From positions 60,276 through 124,275 of the forward strand of contig DATJWA010000013.1 of assembly GCA_035501555.1 (NCBI GenBank): a stretch of DNA of 64,000 nucleotides, given 5' to 3'. The position numbers were made by a program, and so were the translations under genes. How positions within the stretch are numbered: the stretch's first letter is position 1; every line of letters starts with the position of its first letter. The notes beneath the pieces were generated by a model. That model searched no databases and was not told the origin of the DNA. It worked only from the letters and a program-made list of their open reading frames with translations. The DNA is from Thermoplasmata archaeon. GTDB taxonomy: Archaea > Thermoplasmatota > Thermoplasmata > Lutacidiplasmatales > UBA184. Below, in pieces: positions 36,705 to 57,030 of the stretch.

Positions 36705-37607
36705 ATGTCGGCCTCAGCCCCCCGCCCGCTGGTGCGCGCCGAGCGGCGCGGTCCGTCCCTGGTCCTCACGCTCGACCATCCGCCCGTCAACGTCCTCTCG
36801 CGCCCGGTACTCGAGGAGTTGTCTTCGCGGTTGAGGGAGGCGAATTCGGACCCCGCCGTACGCGTGGTTGTACTGAACAGCGCCGCGGAGAAGGCATTCG
36901 CCGCCGGCGCCGACATTCGAGAGATGGCCCCGCTGGGCCCTGCCGAGGCGAGAGCCCACGGGGCGCGGGGGCAGGCGGTGACCCGGCTGATCGAACGTCT
37001 TCCCCTCCCGGTGATCGCGGCCGTGCACGGGGTGTGCCTCGGCGGAGGCTGTGAGATCGCCCTCGCGTGCGACTTTGTCTTCGCGACGCCGGACGCTCAG
37101 TTCGGCCAGCCGGAGATCAACCTCGGCGTCACGCCGGGGTGGGGAGGGTCCCAACGGCTCCCCCGCCGCATCGGCGCGGCCCGCGCTCGCCGTTGGATCT
37201 ACACCGGACGCTCGGTGTCCGCCGCCGAGGCGCACGCGGACGGCTGGGTGGACCGTATCGTCCCGCGGACCGAATTGCTTCCGTCGGCGCTCGAGTTCGC
37301 CGAAGAGCTAGCCGGTAAGCCCCCGCTGGCTCTGGCGGCAGCCAAGTACGAAATTCTGCGGGCGCAGGACCCCCGTATCGACGAGGATCTCCGGTACGAA
37401 CTGGGACTTTGGGCTCGCCTCTTTGGTTCGCGGGACCAGCGGGAGGGAATGACGGCGTTCCTCGAGAAGCGTCCGCTCCCTCCACGGGACCGCAGCGACT
37501 GGGAGGCTCAGTCCCATGGGTTCCCGTGGGCGGAACCCACGGGCTCGGACCGGCCGACCCCTCCGGGCGGAAAGCGGAAAAGGGACGAGGTGTCGGGTCC
37601 CCTCTGA
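36705..37607 (+). CDS. Enoyl-CoA hydratase/isomerase (crotonase) family
   Basis: AFAAGADI oxyanion motif, GGGCEIALACD, and the NLG..PG.GG motif. The stop is 1 nt before tRNA-Thr. Confidence 0.8.
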   Translation: MSASAPRPLVRAERRGPSLVLTLDHPPVNVLSRPVLEELSSRLREANSDPAVRVVVLNSAAEKAFAAGADIREMAPLGPAEARAHGARGQAVTRLIERLPLPVIAAVHGVCLGGGCEIALACDFVFATPDAQFGQPEINLGVTPGWGGSQRLPRRIGAARARRWIYTGRSVSAAEAHADGWVDRIVPRTELLPSALEFAEELAGKPPLALAAAKYEILRAQDPRIDEDLRYELGLWARLFGSRDQREGMTAFLEKRPLPPRDRSDWEAQSHGFPWAEPTGSDRPTPPGGKRKRDEVSGPL

Positions 37608-37608: not shown

Positions 37609-37681
37609 GCCGCGGTGGCTCAGCTGGCAGAGCGGCTCCTTGGTAAGGAGCAGGCCGAGGGTTCAAATCCCTCCCGCGGCT
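37609..37681 (+). tRNA. tRNA-Thr (GGU)
   Basis: Hand fold: acceptor GCCGCGG/CCGCGGC, D-stem GCTC/GAGC, anticodon stem GCTCC/GGAGC with loop TTGGTAA, T-arm GAGGG-TTCAAAT-CCCTC. 73 nt. Confidence 0.85.
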
Positions 37682-38015
37682 GATCTCTCTCCGTGCGCCC
37701 GTGAAGCGGCCCGACGGGCGCGGCTCGGGGACCTTCCCCTGAGTTCGCCCGATCACTCCGAAGAACGGGCGACCGGCTCCGAGAGGGCTTCTTAGAGAAC
37801 TGCCTTCCTGCAAAACTGTGGAGGCCGAAGGCGACGCGTTCTCGCGTTTCCCGTACTGGCCCTTCCGTGAGACCCCGTACCGCTTCCACCACGGCCGAAC
37901 CCCCCGCGTACCATGCGGAGGGGTTCTGCCGCTCTTGCCGTGATGGGGACCACCATGGCCCCCGGGTGTGCCCCCAGCTATTTCTGTGCCGCGACCTTCG
38001 CCGCTCGGCGAGTCG

Positions 38016-39210
38016 AATGCGTCGCACGGCGGGAAAGCTCGCTGGGTCCCCTATCTCTTGGGATCAAGTCAGGGCCTTCCGACTGAATCGCCACCATCTG
38101 TCCCAACGGGCTCCGAAGAAGGCGCTTACCTCCGTCGTGACCGATATGGGCGGGGCCCAAGCCCAGCTGGTATCGGCAGCTCAGGTATCGCTCTGGGCGC
38201 GGACGGAGAATTTGGTGCCCGCGGACGTCAACTCCGCACTTTGGGAAGACCGCCTTCTCGCGAAGGCCTGGTGTATGCGAAGAACAGTGCACTTACTTCC
38301 TACGGAGCATCTTGCCGTATTCGTCAGAGGCACGGCTCGTAGGGCGGAGAAGGAGGTCCGCTACGTGCTCAACCGTGGAGTGACCGCGGAGCGGCTGGAG
38401 GAGCTACTGAGGGTGGTGATCGCCGTTCTCGATCGGCCTGTCACTCGCTCGCAACTGGCCGTTCTCGTGAGCCGAGAGCTCTCCTTGCCGTTGACCACAG
38501 GTCAATGGGCCGGTTGGGGCAGCCGGCGGGAAGTTCCCTGCGTGAAGATGGCGAATTTCACGTTTCCCGCGGACTTTTTGCTCCACCTCGCGGGGGCACG
38601 GGGGGTCCTCTGCGCAGGACCTGACAATGAAGGCGAGTCCACTTCGGTTCGAGCGGATGCATGGCTGCCTCGCTGGCATGACCTGCCGGGCCTTCGGGCG
38701 GAGCAGGAGCTCCTCCGCTTGTATCTCCGCGCGTACGGGCCCGCGACGCCATCCGATTTCAAAGCATGGACTCAGATGCGACTTGCCGACGCACGGACCA
38801 TCTGGACACGCCTAGAAAGCGAGCTCGAGCCAGTTGACATAGAGGGAGAAGCGAAGTGGATTCTCCGAGCGGATCTGCGTGAGCTCGAGCACGCCGAGCT
38901 CCCTGGGTTATCGGTGTGCTTGCTCCCGTACTTCGACTCGTTTCTCCTCGGACACGAAAGGCGCGGCCATCTCCTCGAGGCGCGACACCATCCCCAAGTA
39001 TATCGGGCTCAGGGCTGGATTGCTCCGGTGCTCTTGGTCAACGGTCGGGTCGTGGGTGTGTGGACTCACACTCGGAAGGGAGACCTGCTGACCGTGCGGG
39101 TCACCCGTTTCTCCCGCTTGCCATCGGGGGTCGATCCTCGGGTCCGAGCAGAGGCCCAAGGCCTCGCACGGTTCCTAGGATGTTCTGGCGCGACTACGCT
39201 CTTGAGCTGA
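38016..39210 (+). CDS. Winged-helix HTH_42 / AlkZ-YcaQ-like protein (putative DNA glycosylase)
   Basis: The N-terminal half matches the DUF1006/HTH_42 family (AQ..W.....R...LLK.W.MR.T.HLLP). About 398 aa from ATG 38016. Sits in the lower-GC segment. Confidence 0.55.
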
Positions 39211-39816
39211 GGCGAGGTCGGCTCGTCCACGGCATTGCCGCGTTCCCGATAGATTCGGCTGGCGCAGCGTCGACAGCGGCTCCGTTCGTCCGCCAAGTCG
39301 ATTCTCCACGATTCGAACGCGTTCCTTCCCCATCCCGAAACCACCCTTTTCCGAACTCACCGACAACCTCGGACGGGCCAGCCGGGCGGCTGGGGCTTTG
39401 AACCAATCGACGAAGCCCTCCCGCGGCTGATTTCCCTCGATTCCCTCGGGGCGAACGGGTGTGGAGGGACCCGAACCCTAGTGTCAGGGCCTCCTTGGGC
39501 GCTCGGTCGGTGACCTGACCGTACGGAGCGCGTCGACTCCTCTCCCCTCTCGGGGGAGGGAGAATCGCGGGCGCGGTCAGCGGGAGCGGGGGTTCCCACC
39601 CACTAGTGTGGCCGTCGGATACCATGTTTCCGTCAGAACACGGCGCCGGAGACATTCGTTCCAGAAGGAGTTGGAGCGACTCCCCTTCGGGTACCCTCAA
39701 TGGGCGACCTGACGACGGGAGCACAACCGGGTCGCGGGGTCCGAGCGCCGCCGCGCAGGACGAGCTCTTGATAAGTATCTGGCCCCCGTACGTTCCCTCG
39801 ATTTGGAAGGGCTTCG

Positions 39817-40503
39817 ATGGAAGCCGGATCTGACCACGCTCTAACCGGGCTGGCGTTCGCGGCGACGCCCATCGGGATTGCGCTTCTCTTGCTCGGGGCC
39901 TGGCTGTCTGGGATAGATTGCTGGAGCGGCCCGGTGGCCTTCTCGACGTGCCCCCTGTCCGACCTTGAGTACACGTTCCGTGCCGTACTTCTCTTCTCGG
40001 GCGGGATTGCCCTCGGACTGGGACTCGGCCTCCTTACGCAGATCATGGTCGAGAAGCGTCGCTTGGCCGGGCGTAGGGCGCAGCCAAGAGATGGGCCCCC
40101 CCGCGACACTGGCCCGCCGCCCAAGCGGTCGCCCCTGACCGTCACCATGGTTTGCGTTGCCGTCGCCGTGGCAACGCTCGTCGCACTCGTCGTGGTCCCT
40201 GTCCCCCAAGGGTTCACGATGCACGACGCGGCCATTTACGATCTCGAAACGGACTGTCCGGGGATCTATACTTCACCGGGCACGGTGGTCAGCTTCCATT
40301 GGTCTGCTGGGTCGTTCACGTACTTCTTCGTCGTGGGCTGTCCGGCTAACGAAGAGGTGTACGATGCCAACGGAACCAGCGGCTCGGGTTCCTTCATCTC
40401 CTCTGGCGGCATCTATGAGTTCGGTGGCTCCTGCCCGAGCTCGCTTTTCTGCGTCCCGGCTAACGTATCCGGCACCTACACAGGTCCAATCATCCCACCG
40501 TAA
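39817..40503 (+). CDS. Membrane-anchored Cys-containing protein (unknown)
   Basis: Three hydrophobic helices, then a ~110-aa Gly/Ser/Cys-rich C-terminal domain. No recognisable family. Confidence 0.35.
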   Translation: MEAGSDHALTGLAFAATPIGIALLLLGAWLSGIDCWSGPVAFSTCPLSDLEYTFRAVLLFSGGIALGLGLGLLTQIMVEKRRLAGRRAQPRDGPPRDTGPPPKRSPLTVTMVCVAVAVATLVALVVVPVPQGFTMHDAAIYDLETDCPGIYTSPGTVVSFHWSAGSFTYFFVVGCPANEEVYDANGTSGSGSFISSGGIYEFGGSCPSSLFCVPANVSGTYTGPIIPP

Positions 40504-40643
40504 CGTCTCCGTCAGCCGTTTCCATACAGGCACGACGGCCGACTGAGTGGCGGCTCGAGCCACGAGGGCGGCCGTGCTGCGAGGGCGGCCGCGAGCGCAG
40601 GCGTCTAGGCTGCTTCACCGACCGGTGGGGTCGAGAGCGGGCG

Positions 40644-41915
40644 GTGGGCTACGCGTCGGCTCCTCCCCTGTTTCGGGAAGGGAGACCCGCAGGTCGGGCG
40701 GCAGAATTAACGGCGGTCGGGCCGATGTCGGACGGGATGGAAGGGCGTCGAACAAGGAGAAGCCGGTTGGTCGCTCCCCTTCTTCTGGCCGGCACTCTGC
40801 TTCTCCTCTCGACCCTCTTTCTGGGCTGGTACACGATCAACCTGAACTCGGGGACCTCGGTCTACCACGAGACCTTCTACTCGACGGTCGTCCGGCTCTC
40901 GGGCTCCCAAGCGGGAAGTTCCTATTCTAACGCGACCTCCTACGTTTCGGTTTTTCTCGGCGACACCGGCATTCTGTATCTCACCGTCAGCGGGCTGGTG
41001 GTCGCCGGAGTAGTGGTCGGTTTGTTGGCTGTGTACCTCGTCTGGAAAGGGACCACCCAGAGACATCGGAAGCTCGTTCCCACCCTGGTGGCCTTGGTGG
41101 TCGCTTTCGCTCTGGCAGGACCCATGCTAGTTGGAGTGGTCCAGCCCGCAACACTCTGCCAGGGAGGGGGACCCCCGCAGAGTACCCCGCTCGCCGCATC
41201 GTCTCCGAGCCTCATGGCCGGGCCCTCCTCCAGCTGCTCGTGGGTCGTCGCCTCTCCTTCCCAAGGGGGAACCCTTTACGACTCCGGAAATGGTCCAGGG
41301 CCCCAGACTTCCTTCTACGGTTCCTCGAGCGTGGGGGGACAGCCCCTCACCTGGGGACCCTCCATCGGTTGGTTTGTCGCGGTCGTCGCCTCCACTCTCC
41401 TCATCGCGGGGGCTGCCCTCGATCTCCAGCAACTGGGAAGCTCTACGCGCCCTCAACTGGTGAGGGCCCGATTTGCCGCCCAGACCGGTCTGGCATCAGC
41501 TGGGCTCCTGGTGCTTACTGGGCTGCTCCTGTTCTGGTTCGACTCCCCAGCCTGGCCCTCCTACCAAACGATCCCGTGCGGCCTGATGAGCTGCCACCTG
41601 TATCCGTACAGCGAGATGCTCTCCGGATCTCAGGCCTTCGTCTTCGTCTGCCTCGTCGTCGCCCTGGTCGCGGTCGCGGCCCTCCCGAGATTTTGGGCTT
41701 TCGGAATCGGCACCGGAGCCCTCGCCTTGGTGGCCCTCTGGTTGCTGGCGGGCTCGTTCGGAGCCGCCGACACCCCGGGTGGGGCGTACGCCTGGGGGCT
41801 GGGATCCGTGTTCGTCGGCGGAGCTCTAGCGATTGCTGCTTCTATGGTTATCCGACAGACATACCGCCCGAAGCGCGGAGAGACTCGAATGGGAGCCTCA
41901 CCTCAGAGTTCATAG
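40644..41915 (+). CDS. Polytopic membrane protein (unknown)
   Basis: 8+ hydrophobic segments with Ser/Gly/Pro-rich loops. The start is probably downstream (MSDGMEGRR). Confidence 0.4.
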   Translation: MGYASAPPLFREGRPAGRAAELTAVGPMSDGMEGRRTRRSRLVAPLLLAGTLLLLSTLFLGWYTINLNSGTSVYHETFYSTVVRLSGSQAGSSYSNATSYVSVFLGDTGILYLTVSGLVVAGVVVGLLAVYLVWKGTTQRHRKLVPTLVALVVAFALAGPMLVGVVQPATLCQGGGPPQSTPLAASSPSLMAGPSSSCSWVVASPSQGGTLYDSGNGPGPQTSFYGSSSVGGQPLTWGPSIGWFVAVVASTLLIAGAALDLQQLGSSTRPQLVRARFAAQTGLASAGLLVLTGLLLFWFDSPAWPSYQTIPCGLMSCHLYPYSEMLSGSQAFVFVCLVVALVAVAALPRFWAFGIGTGALALVALWLLAGSFGAADTPGGAYAWGLGSVFVGGALAIAASMVIRQTYRPKRGETRMGASPQSS

Positions 41916-42450
41916 CGCCCTGAACCGGTTGCGTCCTCCTTCCACTCTGCCCCGGCCTCCCTCGGTGACCCAAACGCGCAGCGAACGCGCCCAACGGAGG
42001 GCCGGTGGATCTCGACCCCGAACGGGGCGAGCGCGGCGAGACGAATCCATAAGCCGAAGGTGTTCCGACACCTCCCCGCAGGGCAGCACCGCTGGACAGC
42101 TATCACTGCGGCCGTGGCCGAGTGGGTCGCTCGGGTCTATCGACATGGGAAGGGGTACCGGGTCGTGGTGGAGGGCCTCCTCGATTTCGACGCTGATCAG
42201 CTGGAGGGGATTGAGGAGCAGACCGCCGCGGCGATTTTGGCGCGGCTCCGGACGTCCTATCCGTCACGTGCTAAGCCATGGAGGGACGCCACCGCAGAGC
42301 GAGTCATGGAGTTCGAGGTGGCGGTTCAACGGGTCCCGGCAGACACGTCGGACTGCGAACCAACAGCGTGACTGATGCCTCCGCTCAACGCGGCCGGCAC
42401 GACGCGCCACGGAACCTCCGTGCGGTCGGTGCGCAATAGTACAAGCCACC

Positions 42451-42750
42451 TTGGGCACTTATCCATGGGGGCCCGTTTCCATGCGGTCGGAGATGAGTCA
42501 AGCCACGGCGTTGCTCGTTCTTGTCTGCTTGATCATCGGGACGGTACTGGTGGTGACTGCTGACGAGGTCTTCCGTACCCCCACCTCCTGCGTGAGCCTG
42601 GAGGGGACGTGCACGCCTCCCCCCCTTCCATGGTCGACTCTAGTGGTGGCCGGCGTTTTCCTCGCGATTGGGATCGCTTCGTTCGCGGTGGGCGCACTTA
42701 ACCTGCTACGCTGCGTCCCTCGCATTCGCAAGGCCTCCGGGCAACCCTAG
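42451..42750 (+). CDS. Small 2-TM protein (unknown)
   Basis: 99 aa with two hydrophobic helices and a Cys/Pro-rich loop. Coding status uncertain. Confidence 0.3.
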   Translation: MGTYPWGPVSMRSEMSQATALLVLVCLIIGTVLVVTADEVFRTPTSCVSLEGTCTPPPLPWSTLVVAGVFLAIGIASFAVGALNLLRCVPRIRKASGQP

Positions 42751-42969
42751 CGGACTCCCCCGGGGTCGCCCTCGTGCGAGCGCCACCGACCGTCCCGGGA
42801 GTTCGTCAAGCGTGATGGATTGGGACCTCTGTATTGGGCCAGAAGCGGAGCGCCTTTCGTCCCGGCCTCCGGTCGATACGAAGGCCTTTCTCGCGAGCCA
42901 TTGCGAGGAGCGCGTCGAACGCCTCGGGAGTCAGGGGTGGCTTAATCTAACGGAGGTCGGTCTCGGGTC

Positions 42970-44910
42970 GTGGCCACCACCCGACGGCTCGCCGCCATCA
43001 TGTTCACCGACACGGTCGGCTACACCGCGGCGACCCAAGCCGACGAGGGGCGCACCCTCGACCTGCTCCGCCAGCAGGCGGAGCTGGTCCGGCCCCTGGT
43101 CGCCGTGCACCAGGGGAGAGAAATCAAGTCGACCGGGGATGGCTTCCTGGTCGAATTCGACAGCGCGCTGAAGGCCACGCAATGTGCGGTGAGCATCCAG
43201 CGGCGCATTCACGAGAGGAATGCGGAGGGAGGTCTCGCGCCCATTCGAATCCGGATCGGCATTCACCTCGGGGACGTCGTACAGAGTGGCGCGGACATCC
43301 TGGGTGACGCGGTGAACATCGCCGCCCGTATCGAACCGATCGCAGAGCCCGGAGGAATCTGCGTATCCGGCGCAGTCCAGGAGCAGGTACGGAACAAAAT
43401 CCCCGACAGACTCGAGAAGCTAGCACCGACGGCCTTCAAGGGGCTTGAGCTACCCATGGATGTCTATCGGCTCGTATTGCCGTGGACCGTCGGCGAGCGG
43501 GCTTCCGAGGACCACGGTGCCTCCCCGACCGACAAGAACCGGATCGCCGTTCTGCCGTTCGTGAGCATGAGCCCGGACCCGAACGACGAGTACTTTGCCG
43601 ATGGCCTTACCGAGGAGCTGATCGCCAACCTGGCGCTCGTCAAGGGGCTCAAGGTGATCGCCCGAACGTCGGTGATGGAGTACAAGAGGAAGGAGAAGCA
43701 CGTCTCGGCGATCGGAAAGGAGTTGGGGGTAGGGACCGTCGTGGAAGGCAGCGTTCGGAAAGCCGCGAACCGGATCCGCGTCACGGTACAGGTCATCGAC
43801 GTCGCGACCGAGGAGCATCTGTGGGCTTCGAAGTACGATGACACGCTCGACGACATCTTTGCGGTGCAGAGCGACATCGCGACGAAGGTCGCCGCGTCGC
43901 TCCCGAGCAATCTGGCTCCCACTCCGGCCCAGGTGCCGCCGCTCCAGGAGACCCGAGATATGCCGGCGTATCTCCATTTTCTCCAAGGGCAGGCCCTCGT
44001 TTGGCAGCGCGAGGAGGTCCCCATCCGACAGGCCCTGCGTTTCTTCGAGCAGGCGGTCGAACGCGACCCGAGCTTTTCCAGGGCCTACGCCAGCATCGCC
44101 CGGGCCTACAAACAGCTCGGTGAGGAGGGACTCATCTCCTGGTCCGAGGCGATCGTTCAAGGGAAGGCGGCGGCCGAGAGGGCCATCCGGATCAATCCCA
44201 ACTTGGCGGAGGCCCACGCCATGTTGGCGGAGCTGTCGTTCATGGCGGACGACCCCACCGAGTTGCAGGAGAGAGAGGCGAGGAAGGCCCTGGAGCTGAA
44301 CCCGAATCTCGCCGAGGCCCACGATATCCTGGGCCAGATCGCGGGAATCAAAGGAGACCTACGCTCGTACGTCCGATACATCGAGGAGGCGTATCGGTTG
44401 GACCCGCTCTCTCCGCCGTCGATACGGTACCTCGGAAGGGCGTACTGGCTGGCGGGCCGGGAGGAGGAGGCCCTGGAGCACTGGAAGAAGACGCTGCATC
44501 TCGACCCGATTACTTCCTACCACGGCCTGAGCGACTACTACATTGCCAAGGGGGACCTCGAAAAGGCGGCCGAGATGACGAAAGAGATGGAGAGAATCGC
44601 GCCGACGAATCGACTCACCTACCTGAAGCGCGGGTACCTCGCTGCCCTGCGGGGAGACCGGACGACCGCGATGGAGATGATCGCCAAGCTCGACGCGGCT
44701 CACGACAAAGGCTGGGTAACGTCCCCGTACGCCGGATTCATCTATCTCGCTCTCGGAGACCTAGACAAATTCTTCGACTACATGTTCGCCGCCGTCAAGA
44801 CCCACACACTCCCTTTGAGCACCCTCCTGTTCTCTCCTCTCTTCGTCGACGCACGGAAGGACCCCCGATTCGAACAGGTGGTTTCGCTCGACCGTCAGCT
44901 CAATCCGTGA
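42970..44910 (+). CDS. Class III nucleotidyl cyclase (CHD) - TolB_N-like - TPR multidomain protein
   Basis: CHD motifs FTDTVGYT, KSTGDGF and GDAVNIAARIE. A TolB-N-like segment (IAVLPFVSMS..EYFADGLTEEL...GSVRKA.NRIRV), then 6+ TPR/Sel1-like repeats. 646 aa. Confidence 0.8.
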   Translation: MATTRRLAAIMFTDTVGYTAATQADEGRTLDLLRQQAELVRPLVAVHQGREIKSTGDGFLVEFDSALKATQCAVSIQRRIHERNAEGGLAPIRIRIGIHLGDVVQSGADILGDAVNIAARIEPIAEPGGICVSGAVQEQVRNKIPDRLEKLAPTAFKGLELPMDVYRLVLPWTVGERASEDHGASPTDKNRIAVLPFVSMSPDPNDEYFADGLTEELIANLALVKGLKVIARTSVMEYKRKEKHVSAIGKELGVGTVVEGSVRKAANRIRVTVQVIDVATEEHLWASKYDDTLDDIFAVQSDIATKVAASLPSNLAPTPAQVPPLQETRDMPAYLHFLQGQALVWQREEVPIRQALRFFEQAVERDPSFSRAYASIARAYKQLGEEGLISWSEAIVQGKAAAERAIRINPNLAEAHAMLAELSFMADDPTELQEREARKALELNPNLAEAHDILGQIAGIKGDLRSYVRYIEEAYRLDPLSPPSIRYLGRAYWLAGREEEALEHWKKTLHLDPITSYHGLSDYYIAKGDLEKAAEMTKEMERIAPTNRLTYLKRGYLAALRGDRTTAMEMIAKLDAAHDKGWVTSPYAGFIYLALGDLDKFFDYMFAAVKTHTLPLSTLLFSPLFVDARKDPRFEQVVSLDRQLNP

Positions 44911-45110
44911 GGATGTGCTGGTCGCTCTCGGTGCCCCCCTTCAGCTCAAGATGTAGACCCCGATCGAGGGTTCAGCCAAACGATCCGGATCTCGGAGTGG
45001 GGCGAGAGAGCGGTCCCACCAGGGCTTGTGGAAGTCGAGCCAAGTCAGGCCGCGCAGCCGCCTGCGCTCCGCTTGAGGTAGCCCCCCTCGGCCGGGTTGC
45101 GAGCGGATGG

Positions 45111-45845
45111 CTACGCCCGTCCCTTGGAGGGAGGCGGCAGGAATTTCTCTAAGATTGCTGCAATGGGTTGAACGTCCCTCAGCTGATGGGCCTTTCCCGC
45201 CGCGAGCGGCCCAGCGGAGATGCCTCTCTCGCACTGGACGGTCGCGTCTCGCCAGTCGGTCGGGCTGTGTCCCTCGACGTGGAGAATCACATCGAATATC
45301 GATGTGTGGGTGGTAGGTGCTTCGGCCCACAGGGCTACCTGGCAGGTTCCGGATTCCAGCATCGCACGCATCAGAGGAGCAATTCGCTCGGGGGAGTATA
45401 CCGTGGCAAGGCGTTGGGCGTTCGCCGTTACAAGAATCGACGGTGCGTCCACCCGACCCGTGGCCGAGATCAGCTTCTGGGCGTGCGAAGGCATGCGAAG
45501 AAACTCCACGAGGCCTTGAATCGAATGCGAGGGCTCATCGGACCTGAGCATGGTCGCCGCAGCCCCCTCCGCCCGCTGGGCCTGGATGTCGTCCGGCTGC
45601 AGCTCACGGGGGGAGAGGACGTAGACCGAGTCTTCGGGAACCGCGTGAACGGTCATGGGGTCGAGAGGGTCGAGAATCTCTCCCGGGAGCCGAACGTCGG
45701 TCCAGTAGACCCGCGAGCCAAAAGGGGCGAGAGCAGCGAACGCGAACCACTTCAGCAACGATCGGCTGGTCCCCGCGATGAAGACGGAGGACGGCTTCCC
45801 GAAGACGCCGGGGAAAAGTTCGACGGTCGGTGGCGCCCCCCCCAC
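45111..45845 (-). CDS. Hypothetical protein, possibly degenerate RecA/KaiC-like fold
   Basis: Spacing resembles the KaiC/RadB core (GV.G....VFIAGTSRS..., SVYVLS.EL), but no intact Walker A. Weak assignment. Confidence 0.3.
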   Translation of the reverse strand: MGGAPPTVELFPGVFGKPSSVFIAGTSRSLLKWFAFAALAPFGSRVYWTDVRLPGEILDPLDPMTVHAVPEDSVYVLSPRELQPDDIQAQRAEGAAATMLRSDEPSHSIQGLVEFLRMPSHAQKLISATGRVDAPSILVTANAQRLATVYSPERIAPLMRAMLESGTCQVALWAEAPTTHTSIFDVILHVEGHSPTDWRDATVQCERGISAGPLAAGKAHQLRDVQPIAAILEKFLPPPSKGRA

Positions 45846-46065
45846 AGACAGTCAGAACTGCCATCTCCCCTTAAGAACCTGACCGCCGCCCCACGGAGGC
45901 GCGACTCCCTCCGGGGGAGAGCGCGCCGGGTCAACGCTCCCTTTCAACCGTCGCCTTGAACGGTCTGTCCAACCCCTCTCGACGGCTGATTCCCCACCGG
46001 CGGCTCGACCGCGAGTGGCTGGGGGGTGATCAATCGGGAAGACTGGTGCTCGGTCTCCGGTCAAC

Positions 46066-47415
46066 TCAGAGGCCGACAAGGAGAAACACGAACAGCAACG
46101 CGAGCGTGATCGCCGTGAGGGGAAGACCCACTCGTACGAACGATCGGAGGCCGATGCGTACGCCCGCTCGCTCCGCCTGCTGGACCACGATCAGATTGCT
46201 CGCCGCCCCGAGAAGGGTGAGGTTGCCGGCCAGGGTGCTGCCACCGGCCAGCGCCACCCACACCAACGGCGTTCCGGCACCATATCCGACCGACCGAAGT
46301 ATCGGAATCTGAAGCGCCACCCAGGGAACATTGCTGACGAGCTGAGAGCCTCCCAGACTTGTCAGCAGGATGGCTCCGAGCGCCGTGACGGGGTGAGCCG
46401 GACCAGGGACGGGCAGGATTCCCTCGATCGCGGAGAGCACCCCGCCGTTGGAGGCTCCAGCCACCACGACGAACAGGGCGCCGAAGAGTACCAGGATCGA
46501 CCAATCCACCCGGCCGAACAGTTCCGAGCGACCGGGGCTTGCCACCAGCGTGACGATCGCCCCCCCGAGCGCAATCAGATACAGCGGGGCGGCAGGGCCT
46601 CCGGTGACGGCCGCGACAACGTCCACGGTGATCAGGGCGAGGATGGTTACCGGGAAGACGACCAGGGTAGGGTACCGCCGGGCCAGAGGAAGGATAGGGG
46701 TACTCGGGAAGAGTCGTGGGCGGGCCACCGGGGGGCCCTCGGTGGACCCCGACTCCTGAGCGATCCGACGGCCGTACACCCGTCGGAGGTAGAGCCCGCC
46801 CACGAGCAGGTTCACGAGGGTTGGGAGGAGCAGGTACCGGAGGAAGGTCGCCAGCGGAGAGCTGAGTCCGCTCCCCAGGGACACCAACAGGTTTTGTGGG
46901 TTCCCGAACGGCGTGGCGACGCTCCCGACCGTTACCGAGAATGCGAGGGTGAGGAGAAGCGGCTCCGCGGAAACGCGCATCCGACGGGCGAGGGCGAACA
47001 GGAGCGGGACCCCCACTAGGACCAACGCGTCGTTCAGGACGAACGCGGAGAGGATTCCGATCGCCACGAACAGGACGAACGGGACATCGGCCGGCCTTCG
47101 TGCCGTCCCGAGCACCCAGAGCGCGAGATGGTCGAGGGCGCCGGCCTGTTCGAGCCCGGCGGCGAACAAGAACAGGGCAAACAGGAAGATCAGGATGGAG
47201 AGGTTCGACCCGACTGCGGCGGACGCCGCCGAGATCGGAAGAACTCCGCTGGCCACCATGAGGAAGGCCCCGACGAGGAACACCACCCATATCGGTGGAC
47301 CACGCCGGAGGAGTTGTCGGGCGATGACCGCGCCCACGGTCGCGCCGAGAATCCCTGCCGCGATCGCGTCCACCTCTGGGCCCCCGGGTGAGGCAACCGC
47401 AATCGGGTGAGCCAC
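46066..47415 (-). CDS. ArsB/NhaD-superfamily anion permease
   Basis: 12+ TM helices, with the TPFGNPQNLLV motif typical of ArsB_NhaD/CitMHS permeases. Confidence 0.7.
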   Translation of the reverse strand: MAHPIAVASPGGPEVDAIAAGILGATVGAVIARQLLRRGPPIWVVFLVGAFLMVASGVLPISAASAAVGSNLSILIFLFALFLFAAGLEQAGALDHLALWVLGTARRPADVPFVLFVAIGILSAFVLNDALVLVGVPLLFALARRMRVSAEPLLLTLAFSVTVGSVATPFGNPQNLLVSLGSGLSSPLATFLRYLLLPTLVNLLVGGLYLRRVYGRRIAQESGSTEGPPVARPRLFPSTPILPLARRYPTLVVFPVTILALITVDVVAAVTGGPAAPLYLIALGGAIVTLVASPGRSELFGRVDWSILVLFGALFVVVAGASNGGVLSAIEGILPVPGPAHPVTALGAILLTSLGGSQLVSNVPWVALQIPILRSVGYGAGTPLVWVALAGGSTLAGNLTLLGAASNLIVVQQAERAGVRIGLRSFVRVGLPLTAITLALLFVFLLVGL

Positions 47416-47894
47416 TAAAGATTCTCGAAGCCCAGCCGAGTTCGGTCGCCCCGAGGCGCACTTTGCAGGATCGATCGGGGGCGGTGGGCGATCCCCACCC
47501 GACTCCTAGTGGATGGATGCGCCCCGGGAGCTCCGCGCTCCACCGGGGATGTCCTCTCGGAACATGTCGGCGGACGGGGCGCCGAGGCCTGGGATCCCCC
47601 GGGAATTCGATTCCGCCGCCGATCAGGGCTGAACGCGGGAACCCACGGGTTCGGCGACTGGTCCTAGTCCCGGCGGCCTGACGGTCGGTCCACCTGGCCC
47701 GAAGGCCTTCGCGCCGATTCGCACGGGATGGAATAAGCGGTGCTTCAAGCCCCTCCCGCGGAGATGTGTCCGCCCGCCCCGATGCTCCCGTCCGCTGCAG
47801 GTCCTCCCCTGGGCGGGGTCGGTCCTTATGGGGGGGATGCAGCGTGGACTTTGAGGCCTCGTTCGGACTTTCGAATGTGGTGGGAGAGCGAAAG

Positions 47895-48629
47895 ATGAGC
47901 CGAACCCGGCCCCTCATGTTCCATCGGCTGGCCCCGTACTATGACCACCTGGTCGGGACCAAGGATTACAGGTCGGAATCTAGGTTCCTCGAATCCCTCG
48001 CGCGAAGGCTCGTTCGTTCCCGAGGGCGAGCCTGGCTGGACGTGGCGTGCGGGACCGGAAGACATCTGAGCTTCCTCCGCCGACACTACACGATTACCGG
48101 GGTCGACGTGAGCCGCGAGATGCTCCGGCTGGCCCGACGTCGTCTTCCCCGAACCCGCTTGGTTCGCGGGGACATGAGGAGCTTCCATCTGGACGAGAGG
48201 TTCGACGTGATCAGCTGCCTGTACAGTGCGATAGCCCACCTGAGGACGGAACGGGACCTCGAAGCGACCTTGGTGAATCTTGCTCGCCACCTGAAGCCAG
48301 GCGGCGTCGTGATCATCGAGCCGTGGATCGACCCCGCGGACTTTCGGCAAGGGTTTGTTCACCTGCTCACTCACACCACCCGCTCGGTCACGGTCGCCCG
48401 CATGGCCTTCTCCTCCCGTCGGGGGAGGCGCTCGGCGGTCCACTACCACTATCTGATCGGTCGGCCGGGTCGTCGGGTCGCGCATTTCGAGGAGGTGGAC
48501 ATCGGACTCCTGGTGCCTCGAAGACGCCTGCTGAAACTCATGCGGCGCACCGGCCTGACCGCGCGCTTCCTGAAACGGGGGCTTCCCTCCGGTCGGGGCT
48601 TGCTGCTGGGACTCAAGGGCCCCAGGTAG
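47895..48629 (+). CDS. Class I SAM-dependent methyltransferase
   Basis: LDVACGTGRH (motif I) and DVISCL (motif II). Start at ATG 47895; the ORF track begins earlier without support. Confidence 0.7.
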   Translation: MSRTRPLMFHRLAPYYDHLVGTKDYRSESRFLESLARRLVRSRGRAWLDVACGTGRHLSFLRRHYTITGVDVSREMLRLARRRLPRTRLVRGDMRSFHLDERFDVISCLYSAIAHLRTERDLEATLVNLARHLKPGGVVIIEPWIDPADFRQGFVHLLTHTTRSVTVARMAFSSRRGRRSAVHYHYLIGRPGRRVAHFEEVDIGLLVPRRRLLKLMRRTGLTARFLKRGLPSGRGLLLGLKGPR

Positions 48630-48852
48630 CCTGGCACAGTGCATTCTCCCTGCGCTCCCGACCTCGATGGTCCCGGGACGTGCGAGGCACGCATTCGAGC
48701 CCAGGTCCCACTCGCTCCCGAGGAGGGTCCACCGGAGTTCTCTTTCCGGTCCGAGCCTCGCTCCGTCCGAGCCACCCCGCTGCCCGATCTGCTCTCGGCC
48801 GGGCCCGGATTCCCGTGGGGGTGGCGAAAATGGGAGCCAACTCAGTCGGTGG

Positions 48853-49386
48853 TCATGCGATAGCGCGCGTTCGGGCGAGGTCGATGGCGGGAGGCTGTAC
48901 ATCCATCTGCCAGAGCAATGCGTTGAGCTCGCCTTTGTGCTCCAGGTCCCCTTCGATCATCTGCAGGAGCATCGAGCGGATCGTGATGGACCGGCGGTCG
49001 ACCTGGATGAAGAACTTCCGGTCCAGGTCCTCGGGCACCAGTCGCCTCAGGAAGCTACTCACAAGCCGGTCCACGTCGCGCGTGGCCCGTTCGGCCTCGG
49101 CGCGGCTGAGCCGGGTGCCGAGAGGGAATTCCTCGAACGACCTACCGGTGTAGGCCGTGATGAACCAGAACCGGTAGTCGTCCAGAATGTGAAGGTACAG
49201 GTCGACGAGCGAGGGGAAGGTGGACCTGCGGTCCCGGTACCGCTCCTTGACGGGAAGGCTCCAAATCGTGCGAAGATAGCTCCGGAGCTTCTTGAAATGG
49301 TACCGGTACACGGCTCGGAACAGCTCTAGCTCGGTCGTCATGGTTGCCGGAGCGTGAGCCGGTCCGGTCCTATGTCGTTTCGGCAA
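48853..49386 (-). CDS. DinB/YfiT-like (DinB_2) four-helix-bundle protein
   Basis: Helical protein with conserved His/Asp/Glu spacing (HILDDYRFW, EGDLEHKGEL). Alternative start at MTTELELF. Confidence 0.5.
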   Translation of the reverse strand: MPKRHRTGPAHAPATMTTELELFRAVYRYHFKKLRSYLRTIWSLPVKERYRDRRSTFPSLVDLYLHILDDYRFWFITAYTGRSFEEFPLGTRLSRAEAERATRDVDRLVSSFLRRLVPEDLDRKFFIQVDRRSITIRSMLLQMIEGDLEHKGELNALLWQMDVQPPAIDLARTRAIA

Positions 49387-49424
49387 CCGTGGAGGGCGTC
49401 GACGAAGCCCCGTGGCGCCCGGGC

Positions 49425-49838
49425 CTAGGACTCGTTCCCTCCACTCGTGGCCGGGCGGACCGGTGGAGCAGAGGCGGCCCCTCCCTTGGCTCGGGCCGCG
49501 GTGATCGCAGCGACCACCGGGCTCGACGGGGTTTCTCGGTTCAGGATGAAGCGGTGTCCATCGACCTCTACTCCTGGGATCGGCATCTGGTCGCCGTACC
49601 CGATGCGAATGTGGAACTGACAGGCGGAGACCGTTCGAACCTGGCCCAGCTGCACCGACACGTCGGGCGGGAGGATTGGGGCCCGGCCGCGGAGCAGCCC
49701 GCTGTGCCGGTAGAAGAGCACCCGTCGGTCTGTCAAGACCAGCCAGCCCGGAACCCCCTTCGCGCCGGCCGTTCGGACCGACTCGGCCGGCCAGCTTGCT
49801 ATCTCGGTCTCGCCGACCTCAAGTTCAAACTGCGTCAC
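49425..49838 (-). CDS. Bacterial PH-like domain protein (unknown)
   Basis: GWLVLTDRRVLFY motif resembling the bPH/GRAM fold. Confidence 0.35.
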   Translation of the reverse strand: MTQFELEVGETEIASWPAESVRTAGAKGVPGWLVLTDRRVLFYRHSGLLRGRAPILPPDVSVQLGQVRTVSACQFHIRIGYGDQMPIPGVEVDGHRFILNRETPSSPVVAAITAARAKGGAASAPPVRPATSGGNES

Positions 49839-49900
49839 GCGACCTCTGCCTGGGGGCCGGCCAACGCCGGCACGACCTTGAGTCCGTCGTGCTCCCCCGG

Positions 49901-50656
49901 TCAGGCCGAGGTCAGCGGCACCAGGGAGACCTGGAGGGCAGACTCCGCGAGGCGTTTGTCGATCCGAGTCAGCGCCTCGGAGACTGTGGACTTGCTCCGA
50001 CCGAGGTGGCTGGCGAGGCCCGACACGGAGGTCCGTCGTGGCACGTCGTAGTACCCAAGGTCCATCGCGGCGCGGAAGATCACCTCCTGGGCATGGCTAA
50101 GCCCGAGACTTCCCAAGGTGACCGGTCCGCGGCGAACCGCCTCGACATGGCTCGGGCCAACTCGGCGTCGCAGTCCCTCGAGCGCCTGTTGGATTTCGTC
50201 AGCAGTCCCGACGGTCTCGAATCTGACCCACCCCCCCTCGATGACGAGGGGGTATCGGGTCAACACGCGGTGCCGGCGAATGACGTCAAAGACGACGGGC
50301 GTGGATGCGACGAGCAGATACACGGCCGCGTCGGGCCCCTGCGCATGCACCTCGACGTCGCTCACCTCGGGGTAGCGCCGGACCTCCTCCAGCAGGTCCG
50401 GCGCCCCGGGGCCGAAGACCGCGATTTCGAGCAGCACATTCCGCGCATCGAGCTCCATGCGGTTGCGGATCTCGACCCTCAGGTCCGGATGAGCGGCGTT
50501 GAACCTCGGTCCCATCGCATTCGGCGGCAGCTGGATCGCGAGCCGGTAGGTTCCGAACGGCTGCCCTTGGTGCCGGGCGCGCCTCCGGAGGGAGGCGAGG
50601 CGACGCGCTTGCGCGCGGAGCGCGCCCTCGCCCGCCTTCCGCCGGTACCCGGTCAT
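49901..50656 (-). CDS. HTH_10 (Bat-like) archaeal transcription regulator
   Basis: C-terminal HTH_10 (RAAMDLGYYDVPRRTSVSGLASHLGRSKSTVSEALTRIDKRL). Divergent from the ABC transporter. Confidence 0.65.
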   Translation of the reverse strand: MTGYRRKAGEGALRAQARRLASLRRRARHQGQPFGTYRLAIQLPPNAMGPRFNAAHPDLRVEIRNRMELDARNVLLEIAVFGPGAPDLLEEVRRYPEVSDVEVHAQGPDAAVYLLVASTPVVFDVIRRHRVLTRYPLVIEGGWVRFETVGTADEIQQALEGLRRRVGPSHVEAVRRGPVTLGSLGLSHAQEVIFRAAMDLGYYDVPRRTSVSGLASHLGRSKSTVSEALTRIDKRLAESALQVSLVPLTSA

Positions 50657-50775
50657 CCGCGGCGCCCTCCGGTACGGCCCTCCCGAGATAAGAGGACCCC
50701 GCCCAGTTTGTGCGAACAGGTCCGCGCGAAAAGGGATTACCGTATTAAGACGCGGGCCGCTCGCGACCGCCGGCC

Positions 50776-51453
50776 ATGAGCGAGCCCGTCGTGGTGGGCA
50801 AGGACGTCTGGAAGGTCTACGGGAGCGGGGAGACCGAGGTCACCGCGCTCCAAGGAGTCAACATCTCGATCCAGCGCGGCGAAATGATCGCGGTCATGGG
50901 CCCCTCCGGCTGCGGCAAGACGACCTTTCTCAACTGCTTCTCGGGATTGGACGAGGTGACTCGCGGCGAGGTCACGCTCGAGGGCGTCAACCTCCACTCC
51001 ATGGACGACCGGACCAAGAGCGAGTACCGTGCTCGTCGGGTGGGGTTCGTCTTCCAGGCGTACAACCTCCTCCCGGTCCTGAGCGCGACCGAAAACGTCG
51101 AGATGCCGCTCCTCATCGCGGGCGTCCCGGGTCGCGAGGCCCGGGAACGGGCTCGTGAGATGCTCGGGGAGCTCGGGCTCGGCGACCGGCTCGACCGCCG
51201 ACCTGCGGAACTGTCGGGAGGCCAGCAACAGCGCGTCTCGCTCGCCCGCGCCCTCGTGGGCCGTCCCGCGATCGTCTGGGCGGACGAGCCGACCGGGAAC
51301 TTGGACGAAGAGGACTCCCGTCAGGTGACCACCCTCCTTCGGCAACTGAACAAGACCTACGGCCAGACGATGGTCGTCGTGACCCACGACGCCACGGTCG
51401 CGAGCGGGTGCGACCGAACGGTGCGGATGCGGGACGGGAAGTTCGTGTCCTGA
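50776..51453 (+). CDS. ABC transporter ATP-binding protein (MacB/LolD-like)
   Basis: Walker [10 protein letters not shown], signature LSGGQQQRV, Walker B IVWADEPT, and an H-loop. Confidence 0.9.
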
Positions 51454-51457
51454 ACCC

Positions 51458-54424: not shown

Positions 54425-54472
54425 GTACCTCTCCGAGGGCCCCCGGGGCGGCCCGAGCGACCGCGTCCCGCC

Positions 54473-55066
54473 CTAGAGCCGCTGGACAACCACTTGGCCC
54501 GGCGCGGACGGAGGGTGAGACTTTCCGCGACTCGTGGCGGAATTGATCGGCCTCCAGCCGTGCCACCGCCGGAGCATCCGGACCCGGACCGGAAGCCGGG
54601 CCCCCCGGAAATGGTGGTTGTAGAAGTCCATCGTGATGGAGTGCTCCTCGAACGTGACGTCCTCTCGGGATCCTCCGACCGCTTCGAAAGCCTCCCGGCG
54701 CACGGCCGCGAACCCCGACATGAACAGCTTGTAGCCGAGGACGGACTGCAGGACGTCCAACATCGTGCTCTCGGCCCGCATCATGAGTACGTCGACCTCG
54801 GGCGCGGGCCAGTAATTGGCCGCGACCGCGAACTGCCAATCCCAGGTCAGCCATTCCTCCCACCTCCAGTCGGCGACGAGCCGCACGTCGTCGTCGACGA
54901 ACACCAGCACCTTGCCGGACGCCGCGGCGGCGCCCACGTTGCGGGCGTGGGCGGCCCCTCCCGGCACCGAGACCACGACTAACTCCGAGCCCTTCGGGAG
55001 CATCCCGGCGATCCGTTCGAGGTTGGCCGGCTCCGGCCGTCGGGTTGGGGTGACGAACGAAATCAC
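54473..55066 (-). CDS. GT2-like glycosyltransferase (short)
   Basis: N-terminal Rossmann-like GT-A start (ISFVTPT...ARN.GA..A.G.VLVFVDDDV). 197 aa. Confidence 0.5.
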   Translation of the reverse strand: MISFVTPTRRPEPANLERIAGMLPKGSELVVVSVPGGAAHARNVGAAAASGKVLVFVDDDVRLVADWRWEEWLTWDWQFAVAANYWPAPEVDVLMMRAESTMLDVLQSVLGYKLFMSGFAAVRREAFEAVGGSREDVTFEEHSITMDFYNHHFRGARLPVRVRMLRRWHGWRPINSATSRGKSHPPSAPGQVVVQRL

Positions 55067-55146
55067 GGTCTCCCTCCTCCCGGGTCTACCCCCCGGCCCG
55101 CGACGCGCGGTGCCCTAGGGGACCGAACGCGGTAAGCTGGCCCTCC

Positions 55147-56133
55147 TCAAGCCGAGAGGTCGGTGGGCCGCCGGAAGAATCCGGACCTCAGACGCATCTC
55201 GCCGGTCGAGCGGTCGATCTCTCCCCGCACCCCGACCGTGCGACCGAACATGCCCATCTCGACGATGTACCACGCGACCTCGAAGACGCTTCCCCGGGCG
55301 ACCGCTTCTCCGGCGTGGGCGCGTAGGGCCATCCAGCGGTTCTTCGACATCGCGGTCGCGTACGTGCGCTCGAGCGCCTCTTGGGGTGAGTGGACTGGAC
55401 CGGCGGTGGCCGGCACTTTCGCCACCTCCATCGAGCGCTCCGGGGCGGGAGCCTTCTCCCCGAACCGGTAGCGGCGGTATCGGATGCGGTACCGGTCGGC
55501 CGTGTCCTGTTGGTCGATGAGGGTCCAGACCCGCGGGTTGGTGGTCGGCGCGACGGAGGTGTACCCTTCGCGCGTGCGGACGACCCCGGCGCGCCACCGC
55601 GCGACGCCCCGGAGGAGCAGGTATCCGCCGTAGACCGCCGCCAGGATCCACGCGGTCTCGACCCAGATCGTGAACGGCACGTTCCCCCGCTCGAGGATGA
55701 GCGTCACCATCGTCACCGTGGTGAGGGTGAGCATCGCCACGTTGATCGCGACGTCCGCGTCAAGCCTTAGCCGGCGCAGCGAGAGCGGCAGGAACGGGGT
55801 CACGGCGAAGTGCGTGAACCCGTCGAGGAACACGTGGGAGAGGCCCCCGATCTCCATCGCCGCGAAGTAGCCGAGCGTCGAGGCGTGGGTGAAGTACGGC
55901 AGGTACGGGACCAGAAAGCACCCGACCCCCGCGACGACCGTGACCCCGAGGATCGAGTGGGTGATCCCGTGATGCTGAAGGATGGGGAATCGCCGGGAGA
56001 GGGGGAAGAGCAGCGCGTCCGCGTCCGGCAAGCCCCCCGCGAGGGCGCCGGCGGCGATGAACTGCGGAGCCCCGGGCCCCCAGATCACGAAGGAGAGCAG
56101 GTAGGCGAATACAACATGCGTGAAGAGGTCCAT
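55147..56133 (-). CDS. Membrane-bound metal-dependent hydrolase (DUF457/YdjM-like)
   Basis: LFTHVVFAYL ... HHGITHS ... FLDGFTH His motifs in a polytopic protein. Confidence 0.6.
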   Translation of the reverse strand: MDLFTHVVFAYLLSFVIWGPGAPQFIAAGALAGGLPDADALLFPLSRRFPILQHHGITHSILGVTVVAGVGCFLVPYLPYFTHASTLGYFAAMEIGGLSHVFLDGFTHFAVTPFLPLSLRRLRLDADVAINVAMLTLTTVTMVTLILERGNVPFTIWVETAWILAAVYGGYLLLRGVARWRAGVVRTREGYTSVAPTTNPRVWTLIDQQDTADRYRIRYRRYRFGEKAPAPERSMEVAKVPATAGPVHSPQEALERTYATAMSKNRWMALRAHAGEAVARGSVFEVAWYIVEMGMFGRTVGVRGEIDRSTGEMRLRSGFFRRPTDLSA

Positions 56134-56144
56134 GATGCGCGGGC

Positions 56145-56696: not shown

Positions 56697-57030
56697 GCCG
56701 AGGCGACTTACGATCGTCCTCGCCCAATGGTGCCCGCACTGCGTCCCGCTTTCCGTGCGGGAGGGTCGCCGATTGGCCTCCCGACTTCACGTCCCCCTCC
56801 GCATCCTGGACATCGACAAGCGCGGTCAGGTCCAGGTCGCCGACCGGCTCGTTCGAGACTTCGGGGACCCCTCCCCGGACTATCTGATCCCCCAGGTCTT
56901 CCTGGAATGGTCCGACGGAGGGGTCGAACCGTTGCTGACCGGCTTCTCCGAACGGGTCGCCCGCACCGAGCGTGCGTGGCGCGACCTCCTCTCCAGCGAT
57001 TGGTTGCGGTCGCTTGCCCGGGGAGGATAA
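56671..57030 (+). CDS. Thioredoxin/glutaredoxin-like protein (WCPHC)
   Basis: AQWCPHCVP active site. The 5' ends of this and the previous gene overlap divergently. Confidence 0.5.
   Translation: MPAGRPLRTPRRLTIVLAQWCPHCVPLSVREGRRLASRLHVPLRILDIDKRGQVQVADRLVRDFGDPSPDYLIPQVFLEWSDGGVEPLLTGFSERVARTERAWRDLLSSDWLRSLARGG

Follow-up and report, generated by a model that had tools for sequence, protein, structure and literature searches.

Integrase-less modules at a tRNA-Thr gene: a probable mosaic island in an uncultured soil Thermoplasmata archaeon

A 64-kb stretch of a metagenome contig from an uncultured soil or peat Thermoplasmata archaeon (hereafter the window, whose coordinates are used throughout) contains, directly behind a tRNA-Thr gene, about 13 kb of DNA with lower GC content and accessory-type genes. 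An initial annotation, made from the letters alone, read this segment as an integrated element or decayed genomic island running from the tRNA 3' end to 50.7 kb. How did this DNA come to lie at the tRNA, and where does it end? The segment begins at position 37,682, immediately 3' of the intact tRNA-Thr(GGU/GGT) gene (37,609-37,681, + strand; ARAGORN; Rfam 69.6 bits), whose 3' end reads ...CCGCGGCT. Comparison of the window with related loci points to a probable answer, namely a mosaic, integrase-less island at a tRNA-Thr integration hotspot, which would have been built by serial site-specific insertion of modules. The locus combines a synteny break at the tRNA, a gap of variable length, an atypical composition and, in relatives, arrays of sites and shared cassettes. 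Integrase-less, site-specific insertion at the tRNA 3' end is thus supported, but the evidence does not favor one 13-kb unit with its end at 50.7 kb; the tRNA-end repeat, the break in ~80 relatives and the composition speak for an island, of which only 1.75 kb (37,682-39,431) is firmly delimited.

This delimited part is bracketed by a 26-nt direct repeat. The left copy, AATCCCTCCCGCGGCTGATCTCTCTC (37,666-37,691, +), consists of the last 16 nt of tRNA-Thr and 10 nt of flank, and it recurs at a spacing of 1,747 nt at 39,413-39,438, where 23 of 26 positions are identical and the 16 nt of the tRNA match exactly. The exact 16-nt match had an E-value of 0.002 in blastn-short, and none of 100 shuffles gave two matches. 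The initial annotation had found by eye only an insignificant 8-mer near 50.68 kb and missed this strong repeat; searching both edges of the segment for the tRNA-Thr 3' end returned the copy at 39,413-39,438 but nothing significant near 50.7 kb.

The second copy of the repeat belongs to a family-A attachment (att)-like site, a putative attR (39,338-39,438, +), in which an arm of ~85 nt and a copy of the tRNA-Thr 3' end are followed by GATTTCCC. A hidden Markov model (HMM) built from eight sites of three related loci (L030, L033, and L070), with the window copy excluded, matched 39,338-39,433 at E = 1.4e-19, and the closest pairwise match of the site was one in L030 (89% over 89 nt). The sequence from 39,432 onward is GATTTCCCTCGA..., and the GATTTCCC behind the site is the sequence that follows tRNA-Thr itself in L086 and L023, with one base off in L035, while its first five to six bases (GATTT/GATTTC) follow tRNA-Thr in L014, L067, L013, L011, and L003. 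Finding the native tRNA-Thr flank behind the 39.4-kb site is as expected of a displaced original flank at attR.

Between the tRNA and this site lie a conserved arm of ~170 nt after the core (37,682-37,852, +), the putative P' arm of the module, and a single cargo gene encoding an AlkZ-like (YcaQ/HTH_42) DNA glycosylase (38,017-39,210, +; Pfam PF06224, E = 1.5e-54). The GC content at third codon positions (GC3) of this gene, 0.69, is the lowest in the window. The arm shares 81% identity with the DNA behind tRNA-Thr in L017, and homologous sequence also follows an internal site of L030, whose third cassette has both end arms as in the window, with other cargo genes. Conserved ends and bracketing by tRNA and site therefore indicate that 37,682-39,431 (1,750 bp) behaves as a discrete integrase-less module, its distal border marked by the tRNA-end direct repeat. 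To judge by these sequence features, it is a module with only the AlkZ-like gene, set between tRNA-Thr and a family-A site with its displaced flank.

Two further observations concern this module. An SSV-type integrase gene split across the repeats was considered and rejected, as the overlapping open reading frames (ORFs; 37,620-38,027 and 39,194-39,724, both -) are out of frame over the 1,747-nt offset, as calculated from the ORF coordinates, and the AlkZ-like gene fills the interval between the repeats. About 30 nt past the att-like site, at 39,461-39,507 (+), lies an inverted T-arm-like motif, GGAGGGACCCGAACCCTAGTGTC..., possibly a truncated second site. It is similar both to the 5' arm of L080 and L016 sites and to the inverted copy of the tRNA end that L086 and L023 have ~30 nt behind tRNA-Thr.

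Whether the locus is variable was assessed in relatives found via the Nop56/58 protein, all of them Thermoplasmata metagenome-assembled genomes (MAGs) from soils and peat. The closest by this protein is OY970259.1 (locus L017; 75% identical). Upstream of the tRNA, the order GyrB-(hypothetical)-amidohydrolase-LplA-AhpC-Nop56/58-crotonase-tRNA-Thr is kept in 66 genome and ~25 metagenome loci, and in ~80 relatives synteny breaks exactly at the last base of tRNA-Thr. In none of these 66 genome and ~25 metagenome loci are the island genes syntenic behind tRNA-Thr. The only homologues found behind tRNA-Thr in relatives are distant ones of the cyclase-TPR protein (37%, L033), orf244 (35%, L016), and DinB (47%, L030). 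L017 shares just the ~170 nt after tRNA-Thr (81%) and the last ~940 nt, which comprise a TPMT-like methyltransferase gene and tRNA-Met; its own filling between the two tRNAs is 3.47 kb long and includes an MR/MLE-family enzyme. A crotonase search of a metagenome collection gave a best match of 77% identity and no island-free strain.

The crotonase gene (36,705-37,607) stops 1 nt before the start of tRNA-Thr at 37,609, as had been noted, and ends in a Pro/Arg/Gly-rich C-terminal tail (37,480-37,607). This tail is kept in relatives and aligns with both crotonase copies of L009, and it is therefore genuine coding sequence and not a read-through artefact.

On the right, the non-syntenic region does not stop at 50.7 kb but extends to ~62.4-63.2 kb, where a second tRNA gene forms the right syntenic anchor (63,236-63,338, +). 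This intron-containing tRNA has a CAU anticodon, lying in a CUCAUAA anticodon loop, together with an A1:U72 pair and a GGG/CCC anticodon stem, features that suggest an initiator tRNA-Met. With default settings ARAGORN does not detect the gene; with -i it reports Arg(cct), and Rfam matches just the 3' part at 23.9 bits, below the 29-bit threshold. The gene is 85-96% identical in nucleotide sequence in 22 genome loci and also occurs in six metagenome loci. The distance from tRNA-Thr to tRNA-Met is 0.34-8.4 kb in these 28 loci and 25.5 kb in the window; in 23 other loci tRNA-Met lies >5-10 kb from tRNA-Thr. What varies, with the break at tRNA-Thr and synteny resuming only at tRNA-Met, is therefore the entire gap between the two tRNAs. 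The part of it next to tRNA-Thr, the newest and compositionally least assimilated, is the lower-GC 13 kb.

Since the window is a metagenome contig and tRNAs are common misjoin points in assembly, a chimera joined at the tRNA could in principle account for both the composition shift and the odd genes. Exact-protein look-ups placed the window's genes on ENA contig ERZ27256501 k141_3427809 and JGI contig 3300033158 Ga0335077_10000571, and returned only contigs of identical structure. The left junction is the same in three public contigs from two samples (ERZ27256501 and 3300033158), and with it 10 kb of the island is identical in the ENA and JGI contigs; the right junction, between the HTH_10 and ABC genes, is identical in four contigs, among which are that ENA contig and one from Logan run SRR8881005. 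Moreover, the family-A site and the tRNA-Met anchor place both ends of the region in the same clade. Identical structure across contigs therefore excludes a chimeric assembly, to which we assign next to no probability.

The composition of the segment differs from that of its flanks. GC content is 65.3% at 37,682-50,700, against 71.0% in the left flank (1-37,608) and 69.4% in the right flank (50,701-64,000), and the lowest-GC 13 kb of all 64 kb starts at 37,301. In 1-kb windows, GC inside the segment differs from that outside (Mann-Whitney p = 3e-7). The dip after tRNA-Thr proposed by the initial annotation is thus real, but the 58-62% it gave is not borne out, as the 1-kb windows of the segment measure 62-68%. 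The sliding-window GC and tetranucleotide profiles it had proposed are both non-uniform and both deviate in the segment: the correlation of tetranucleotide usage with the left flank falls from 0.89-0.94 to 0.65-0.79 at 36-48 kb and later returns only to 0.84-0.90. Mean GC3 is 0.78 for the 12 island genes versus 0.87 on either side. From 0.69 in the AlkZ-like gene it passes to 0.73-0.76 in the next four ORFs and 0.75-0.84 in the remaining island. The left edge is sharp and lies at tRNA-Thr, but the right edge is a gradient with no step. In 48 of 49 relatives GC is lower downstream of tRNA-Thr than upstream of it (mean difference, 3.9 points), and the window shows the same pattern.

In the relatives, sites like that at 39.4 kb occur in arrays. 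Outside tRNAs, the exact 12-nt core CCTCCCGCGGCT was found 27 times downstream of tRNA-Thr in the orientation of the tRNA, once downstream in inverted orientation, and not at all in 756 kb of upstream flank. Between one and four sites are carried by 18 of 81 loci, at spacings of 556-4,600 bp (median ~1.26 kb). The sites form families with long common arms; in family B, ~45 nt after the core are repeated at each unit. Small-cassette arrays with one site per cassette were seen in L008, L030, L033, and L059, and the window has one clear cassette. L008 is collinear with L007 and L091 (88% nucleotide identity) apart from 4.37 kb of additional DNA placed exactly at the 3' end of the tRNA. This insertion contains cassettes of 683-1,257 bp and four family-B sites, and its far end is a decayed family-A-like site.

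Cassettes are also shared between loci. A 1.65-kb module with GNAT and alpha/beta-hydrolase genes is 79-84% identical in nucleotide sequence in L059, L033, and L030, while the core flank of L059 is not alignable to those of the other two. The module begins ~30 nt after the core, which belongs to the tRNA in L059, to site 1 in L033, and to site 3 in L030, so that it occupies array positions 1, 2, and 4, respectively. Other cargo in relatives includes cytidine deaminase, SnoaL, RibD_C, amidohydrolase, secreted proteins with unknown function, and an IS66 transposase. Cassette GC3 in relatives is 0.65-0.83. The IS66-family transposase (DDE_Tnp_IS66 and zf-IS66 domains) is encoded at 2,165-3,601 (-) of L033, inside the third cassette of that array, and insertion sequences therefore land in the region too.

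We propose that the tRNA-Thr 3' end would serve as the attachment site for site-specific recombination, its last 13-16 nt being the proposed recombination core (attB/attL). Modules of 0.6-4.6 kb with one to three accessory genes would each bring an att site, whose core would be a copy of these 13-16 nt and whose two arms would measure ~85 nt and as much as ~170 nt, respectively. Recombination is proposed to occur within the core CCCTCCCGCGGCT; each insertion at the tRNA end would regenerate the tRNA and push older modules outward. As the modules carry no integrase, the recombinase would have to act in trans, and we infer that a tyrosine recombinase encoded elsewhere performs the reaction.

An unlikely alternative is that the inter-tRNA stretch is native and flexible and owes its shape mainly to rearrangement and homologous exchange among relatives, with the tRNAs and their flanks as anchors. 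The lower GC would then reflect weakly selected accessory genes, and the att-like site would be a relic irrelevant to most of the 13 kb. L009 (and also L004) offers a case that such exchange explains better than a short att core does: a cluster of 6.5 kb with genes for sugar-nucleotide enzymes and glycosyltransferases (RmlD-like, GDP-mannose dehydratase-like, NTP transferase, and GT1; 2,491-8,997 of L009) is bracketed by two ~340-nt copies, ~87% identical, of the crotonase 3' end and the complete tRNA-Thr, with no short att core. In the window itself, the many Thermoplasmata homologues of the island genes, the near-core GC3 of the distal genes, and the lack of a site at 50.7 kb point the same way. 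Homologous recombination nevertheless leaves unexplained the strictly co-oriented, downstream-only arrays of ~100-nt sites, the precise 4.37-kb insertion of L008 at the last base of the tRNA, and the fact that lineages with non-alignable flanks carry one and the same cassette at differing places in their arrays.

The rest of the segment, 39.4-50.7 kb, contains no significant att-like site, and no att copy lies at 50.7 kb. It starts with four small ORFs (228, 382, 85, and 89 aa; 39,817-42,750, +; GC3 0.73-0.76), three of them predicted membrane proteins, for which Pfam, NCBIfam, PADLOC, and PHROGs gave no match; the same four genes are called on public contigs. These are followed by a class III nucleotidyl cyclase with a TolB_N-like region and TPR (42,970-44,910, +; Guanylate_cyc, 4e-13; TPR families; TolB_N weak, E = 0.0045), which has homologues of 37-40% identity in the first cassette after tRNA-Thr of L033 and, twice, in L181. 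The next gene, orf244 (45,111-45,845, -), encodes a conserved protein specific to Thermoplasmata, with ~100 homologue clusters at 47-83% identity, all from Thermoplasmata where named. It had been labeled KaiC-like, but searches of Pfam, NCBIfam, PADLOC, PHROGs, and PDB yielded nothing in favor of this label. Its neighbors vary among genomes and include housekeeping genes with tRNA-Glu (L183), two cyclase-TPR genes (L181), and a flexible region (L185).

Further on, a CitMHS/ArsB-superfamily permease (46,066-47,373, -; Pfam PF03600, 1.4e-52) lies between two weak candidates for decayed att-like sites, both intergenic and co-oriented with the tRNA (45,954-45,991, +, nhmmer with the generic profile 7.0 bits, E = 0.47; 47,742-47,761, +, 6.8 bits, E = 0.54). 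The top four hits of this generic site profile in the window are all on the + strand and within the island, the strong site and tRNA-Thr being followed by 45,954 as third and 47,742 as fourth. An S-adenosylmethionine (SAM) methyltransferase gene (47,895-48,629, +; Pfam) opens the last group (47,895-50,656), which continues with a DinB-family protein (-), orf137 (49,425-49,838, -), and an HTH_10/BAT-type regulator (49,901-50,656, -), annotated by Pfam and with GC3 of 0.79-0.84. Pfam thus confirmed most of the genes first listed for the segment, namely AlkZ-like, Guanylate_cyc with TPR (TolB_N weakly), CitMHS, DinB, and HTH_10, but the SAM methyltransferase had been overlooked and the KaiC-like assignment did not hold. 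Between DinB and HTH_10 lie two short site-like fragments (49,399-49,411 and 49,479-49,491, +), the second inside orf137. One of them, TCGACGAAGCCC, is part of the family-A arm, and the other, CCCTCCCTTGGCT, exactly matches the 3'-terminal 13 nt of tRNA-Cys in the window (11,993-12,065); both are statistically non-significant.

The DNA between 50,776 and 63,116 completes the non-syntenic inter-tRNA region. Pfam identified genes for ABC/FtsX, a GT2 fragment, YdjM, thioredoxin, and a second HTH_10, as well as three methyltransferases, DSPc, DUF1015, and a TPMT-like methyltransferase; the genes of this part have a host-like GC3 (0.81-0.92). The side beyond 50.7 kb is also accessory and not housekeeping. 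The second HTH_10 regulator (58,157-58,999, +), in this high-GC part, has an HVO_A0563_N-type N-terminal domain and is of a type paralogous to the HTH_10 of the island (49,901-50,656). Clear counterparts at the locus in relatives exist for YdjM (L053, L060, and L063) and for the last methyltransferase (L017). Weaker ones were found for the ABC ATPase (27-35% in L051, L029, L041, L027, L067, and L050) and for the ORFs at 57,595-58,053 (53%, L045), 58,963-59,685 (44%, L044), and 58,130-58,996 (28%, L058).

We infer that 39.4-50.7 kb represents older modules, or other flexible DNA, with decayed borders, a weaker case than that for the AlkZ-like module. Homologues of the AlkZ-like protein (50-75% identity) are common in Thermoplasmata MAGs at loci without tRNA-Thr or sites, and those of orf244 are likewise found at other loci, so that the cargo is not demonstrably foreign. 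To judge by these homologues, the island appears to draw on the lineage's own flexible gene pool and not on obviously foreign DNA.

Could the whole 13 kb instead be one virus or plasmid that integrated at tRNA-Thr and later lost its integrase and distal att? Its position beside the tRNA, its lower GC as one roughly contiguous block, and its lack of an integrase would fit, and integrase loss after integration is documented in archaea (PMC8371274). Such an origin is nonetheless quite improbable. A complete att-like site lies within the block at 39.4 kb and is followed by the native tRNA flank, GC3 climbs stepwise with distance from the tRNA, and the cargo matches scattered Thermoplasmata chromosomal genes. 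PHROGs, PADLOC, Pfam, and NCBIfam yielded no virus, plasmid, or replication hallmarks. A provirus or integrated plasmid was rejected on these grounds, since PHROGs matched only generic TPR and methyltransferase families and no virion, packaging, or replication hallmarks; a defence island was rejected as well, since PADLOC matched only a generic, Pycsar-type cyclase domain and a mad2 methyltransferase domain and no defence system.

IMG/VR was scanned for the sites and for the end of the tRNA, with no relevant result. Patterns of the family-A arm, the family-B arm, and the 22-nt tRNA end had no hits each, and a degenerate core pattern gave 28 loci with core-only matches, mostly on unrelated or low-GC contigs. 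Four low-GC viral contigs of IMG/VR (L149, L154, L155, and L167; GC ~0.37) contain two copies of CCTC[C/A]CGCGGCTCGT ~510 nt apart, with one base different in L167. The paired motifs probably represent att sites of an unrelated archaeal virus whose target tRNA would have an identical 3' end.

The recombinase was searched for at several levels. Among the ORFs between 30 and 63 kb, Pfam, NCBIfam, PADLOC, and PHROGs found no integrase, recombinase, or transposase family, which bears out the initial statement that none is visible. Neither in the window nor among the commoner families of the relatives' 117 ORFs was there a tycheposon-type recombinase with a replication module; it should be noted that this Pfam scan considered the 25 commonest families, each in at least two ORFs, so that one or two integrases could escape. 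No IntI lies beside the primary site, the tRNA neighbors being crotonase, Nop56/58, AhpC, LplA, amidohydrolase, and GyrB in every relative. On a Thermoplasmata contig (L177), a 532-aa Phage_integrase protein (19,294-21,065) with an adjoining Resolvase is encoded ~8 kb from a 75%-identical AlkZ-like homologue, with no tRNA-Thr or att-like site nearby. This Phage_integrase is a possible candidate family for the missing recombinase.

Several points weigh against serial site-specific insertion as the account of the whole island. No integrase was found in the window's inter-tRNA region or among the commoner families of the relatives' 117 ORFs. The window has one strong site only, and the candidates at 45,954 and 47,742 are non-significant on their own (E ~0.5); core-like 13-mers are weakly enriched in the island (P = 0.027), but at ~0.09 once the strong site is left out. 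The ~170-nt arm is common to L017 and could be inherited flank and not element DNA. There is no marker of any kind at the 50.7-kb edge, and the GC3 of the distal island genes (0.79-0.84) overlaps that of core genes such as crotonase (0.81). AlkZ-like (50-75%) and orf244 (47-83%) homologues are widespread in Thermoplasmata at unrelated loci. The dyad symmetry of the sites is modest (pooled stem-length test over 35 sites, p = 5e-4), RNAalifold gave no consensus structure for them, and the single-site fold z-score is -1.06. Finally, the closest relative is only ~75-82% identical in the flanking proteins, at which distance the timing and number of insertions are not resolvable.

The arrays allow a wider reading, which we put forward tentatively. 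The stretch from tRNA-Thr(GGU) to tRNA-Met may be a dedicated, integron-like gene-capture platform with the tRNA 3' end as its fixed primary site, in which circular integrase-less cassettes with a tRNA-mimicking site of ~100-280 bp would be inserted and also excised by a chromosomal recombinase acting in trans and exchanged across family-level lineages. Should such a trans recombinase be confirmed, uncultured soil archaea would possess a means of gene capture akin to integrons, which would help to explain how these genomes acquire detoxification and repair-type enzymes. The two tRNA anchors and the site profile also give a simple means to delimit flexible DNA in Thermoplasmata MAGs.

How does the locus compare with known systems? 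Taken alone, the window belongs to a familiar class, that of decayed tRNA-linked islands without an integrase. For archaeal tRNA elements, integration in tandem and loss of the integrase have been reviewed (PMC8371274). As in tRNA-targeted integrative elements and islands, the target is a tRNA 3' end, the tRNA is regenerated, and the far border is a direct repeat of the tRNA end; the composition is atypical, the DNA is absent from the locus in relatives, and tandem units are possible. In contrast to such elements, no integrase lies in or beside any unit examined here. Unlike plasmids and proviruses, the units are often single-gene cassettes of 0.6-1.3 kb with ordinary accessory enzymes and no replication or virion genes.

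The tycheposon islands of Prochlorococcus (bioRxiv 10.1101/2020.12.28.424599) are likewise anchored at tRNAs, contain scattered partial tRNA copies, niche-type cargo, and decayed remnants, and grow by newer arrivals pushing older ones inward. Tycheposons, however, encode a tyrosine or serine recombinase of their own, in most cases together with a replication module, neither of which was seen here. The present locus also differs from them in its archaeal lineage and in att sites with long conserved arms.

Modules that lack an integrase and are mobilised in trans include the cis-mobilizable elements (CIMEs) of streptococci, integrative mobile elements exploiting Xer (IMEX) at dif, and the pdif modules of Acinetobacter plasmids, which use the integrase of an integrative and conjugative element (ICE) or the host XerC/D at dif-like sites. 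Like the units described here, these modules are bounded by recombinase sites, lack a recombinase, and build up in tandem at one site; the present site differs in mimicking a tRNA end.

Integrons with IntI and attC have been reported in Archaea (PMC9668308). Like integron arrays, the arrays in relatives consist of small cassettes with one site each, have a fixed primary site, and hold older cassettes distally. The sites show imperfect dyad symmetry, although no site matched Rfam significantly, and the cargo (GNAT, deaminase, SnoaL, RibD_C, DinB, and methyltransferases) resembles the content of chromosomal integrons. Unlike in integrons, the array has no neighboring IntI, a tRNA 3' end takes the place of attI as primary site, and the core is derived from a tRNA and does not appear to be built of attC R/L boxes. 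Integron cassettes have co-oriented ORFs, whereas ORF orientation is mixed in L073, L033, L030, and L086 and in the window, and the ORFs run both ways with no common-promoter logic. The clade-wide arrays are thus nearest to integron cassettes or to modules mobilised in trans, yet fit the definition of none of these systems. What sets them apart is the combination of very small cassettes, tRNA-mimicking sites with long arms, a fixed place between two tRNAs, and the sharing of cassettes across lineages.

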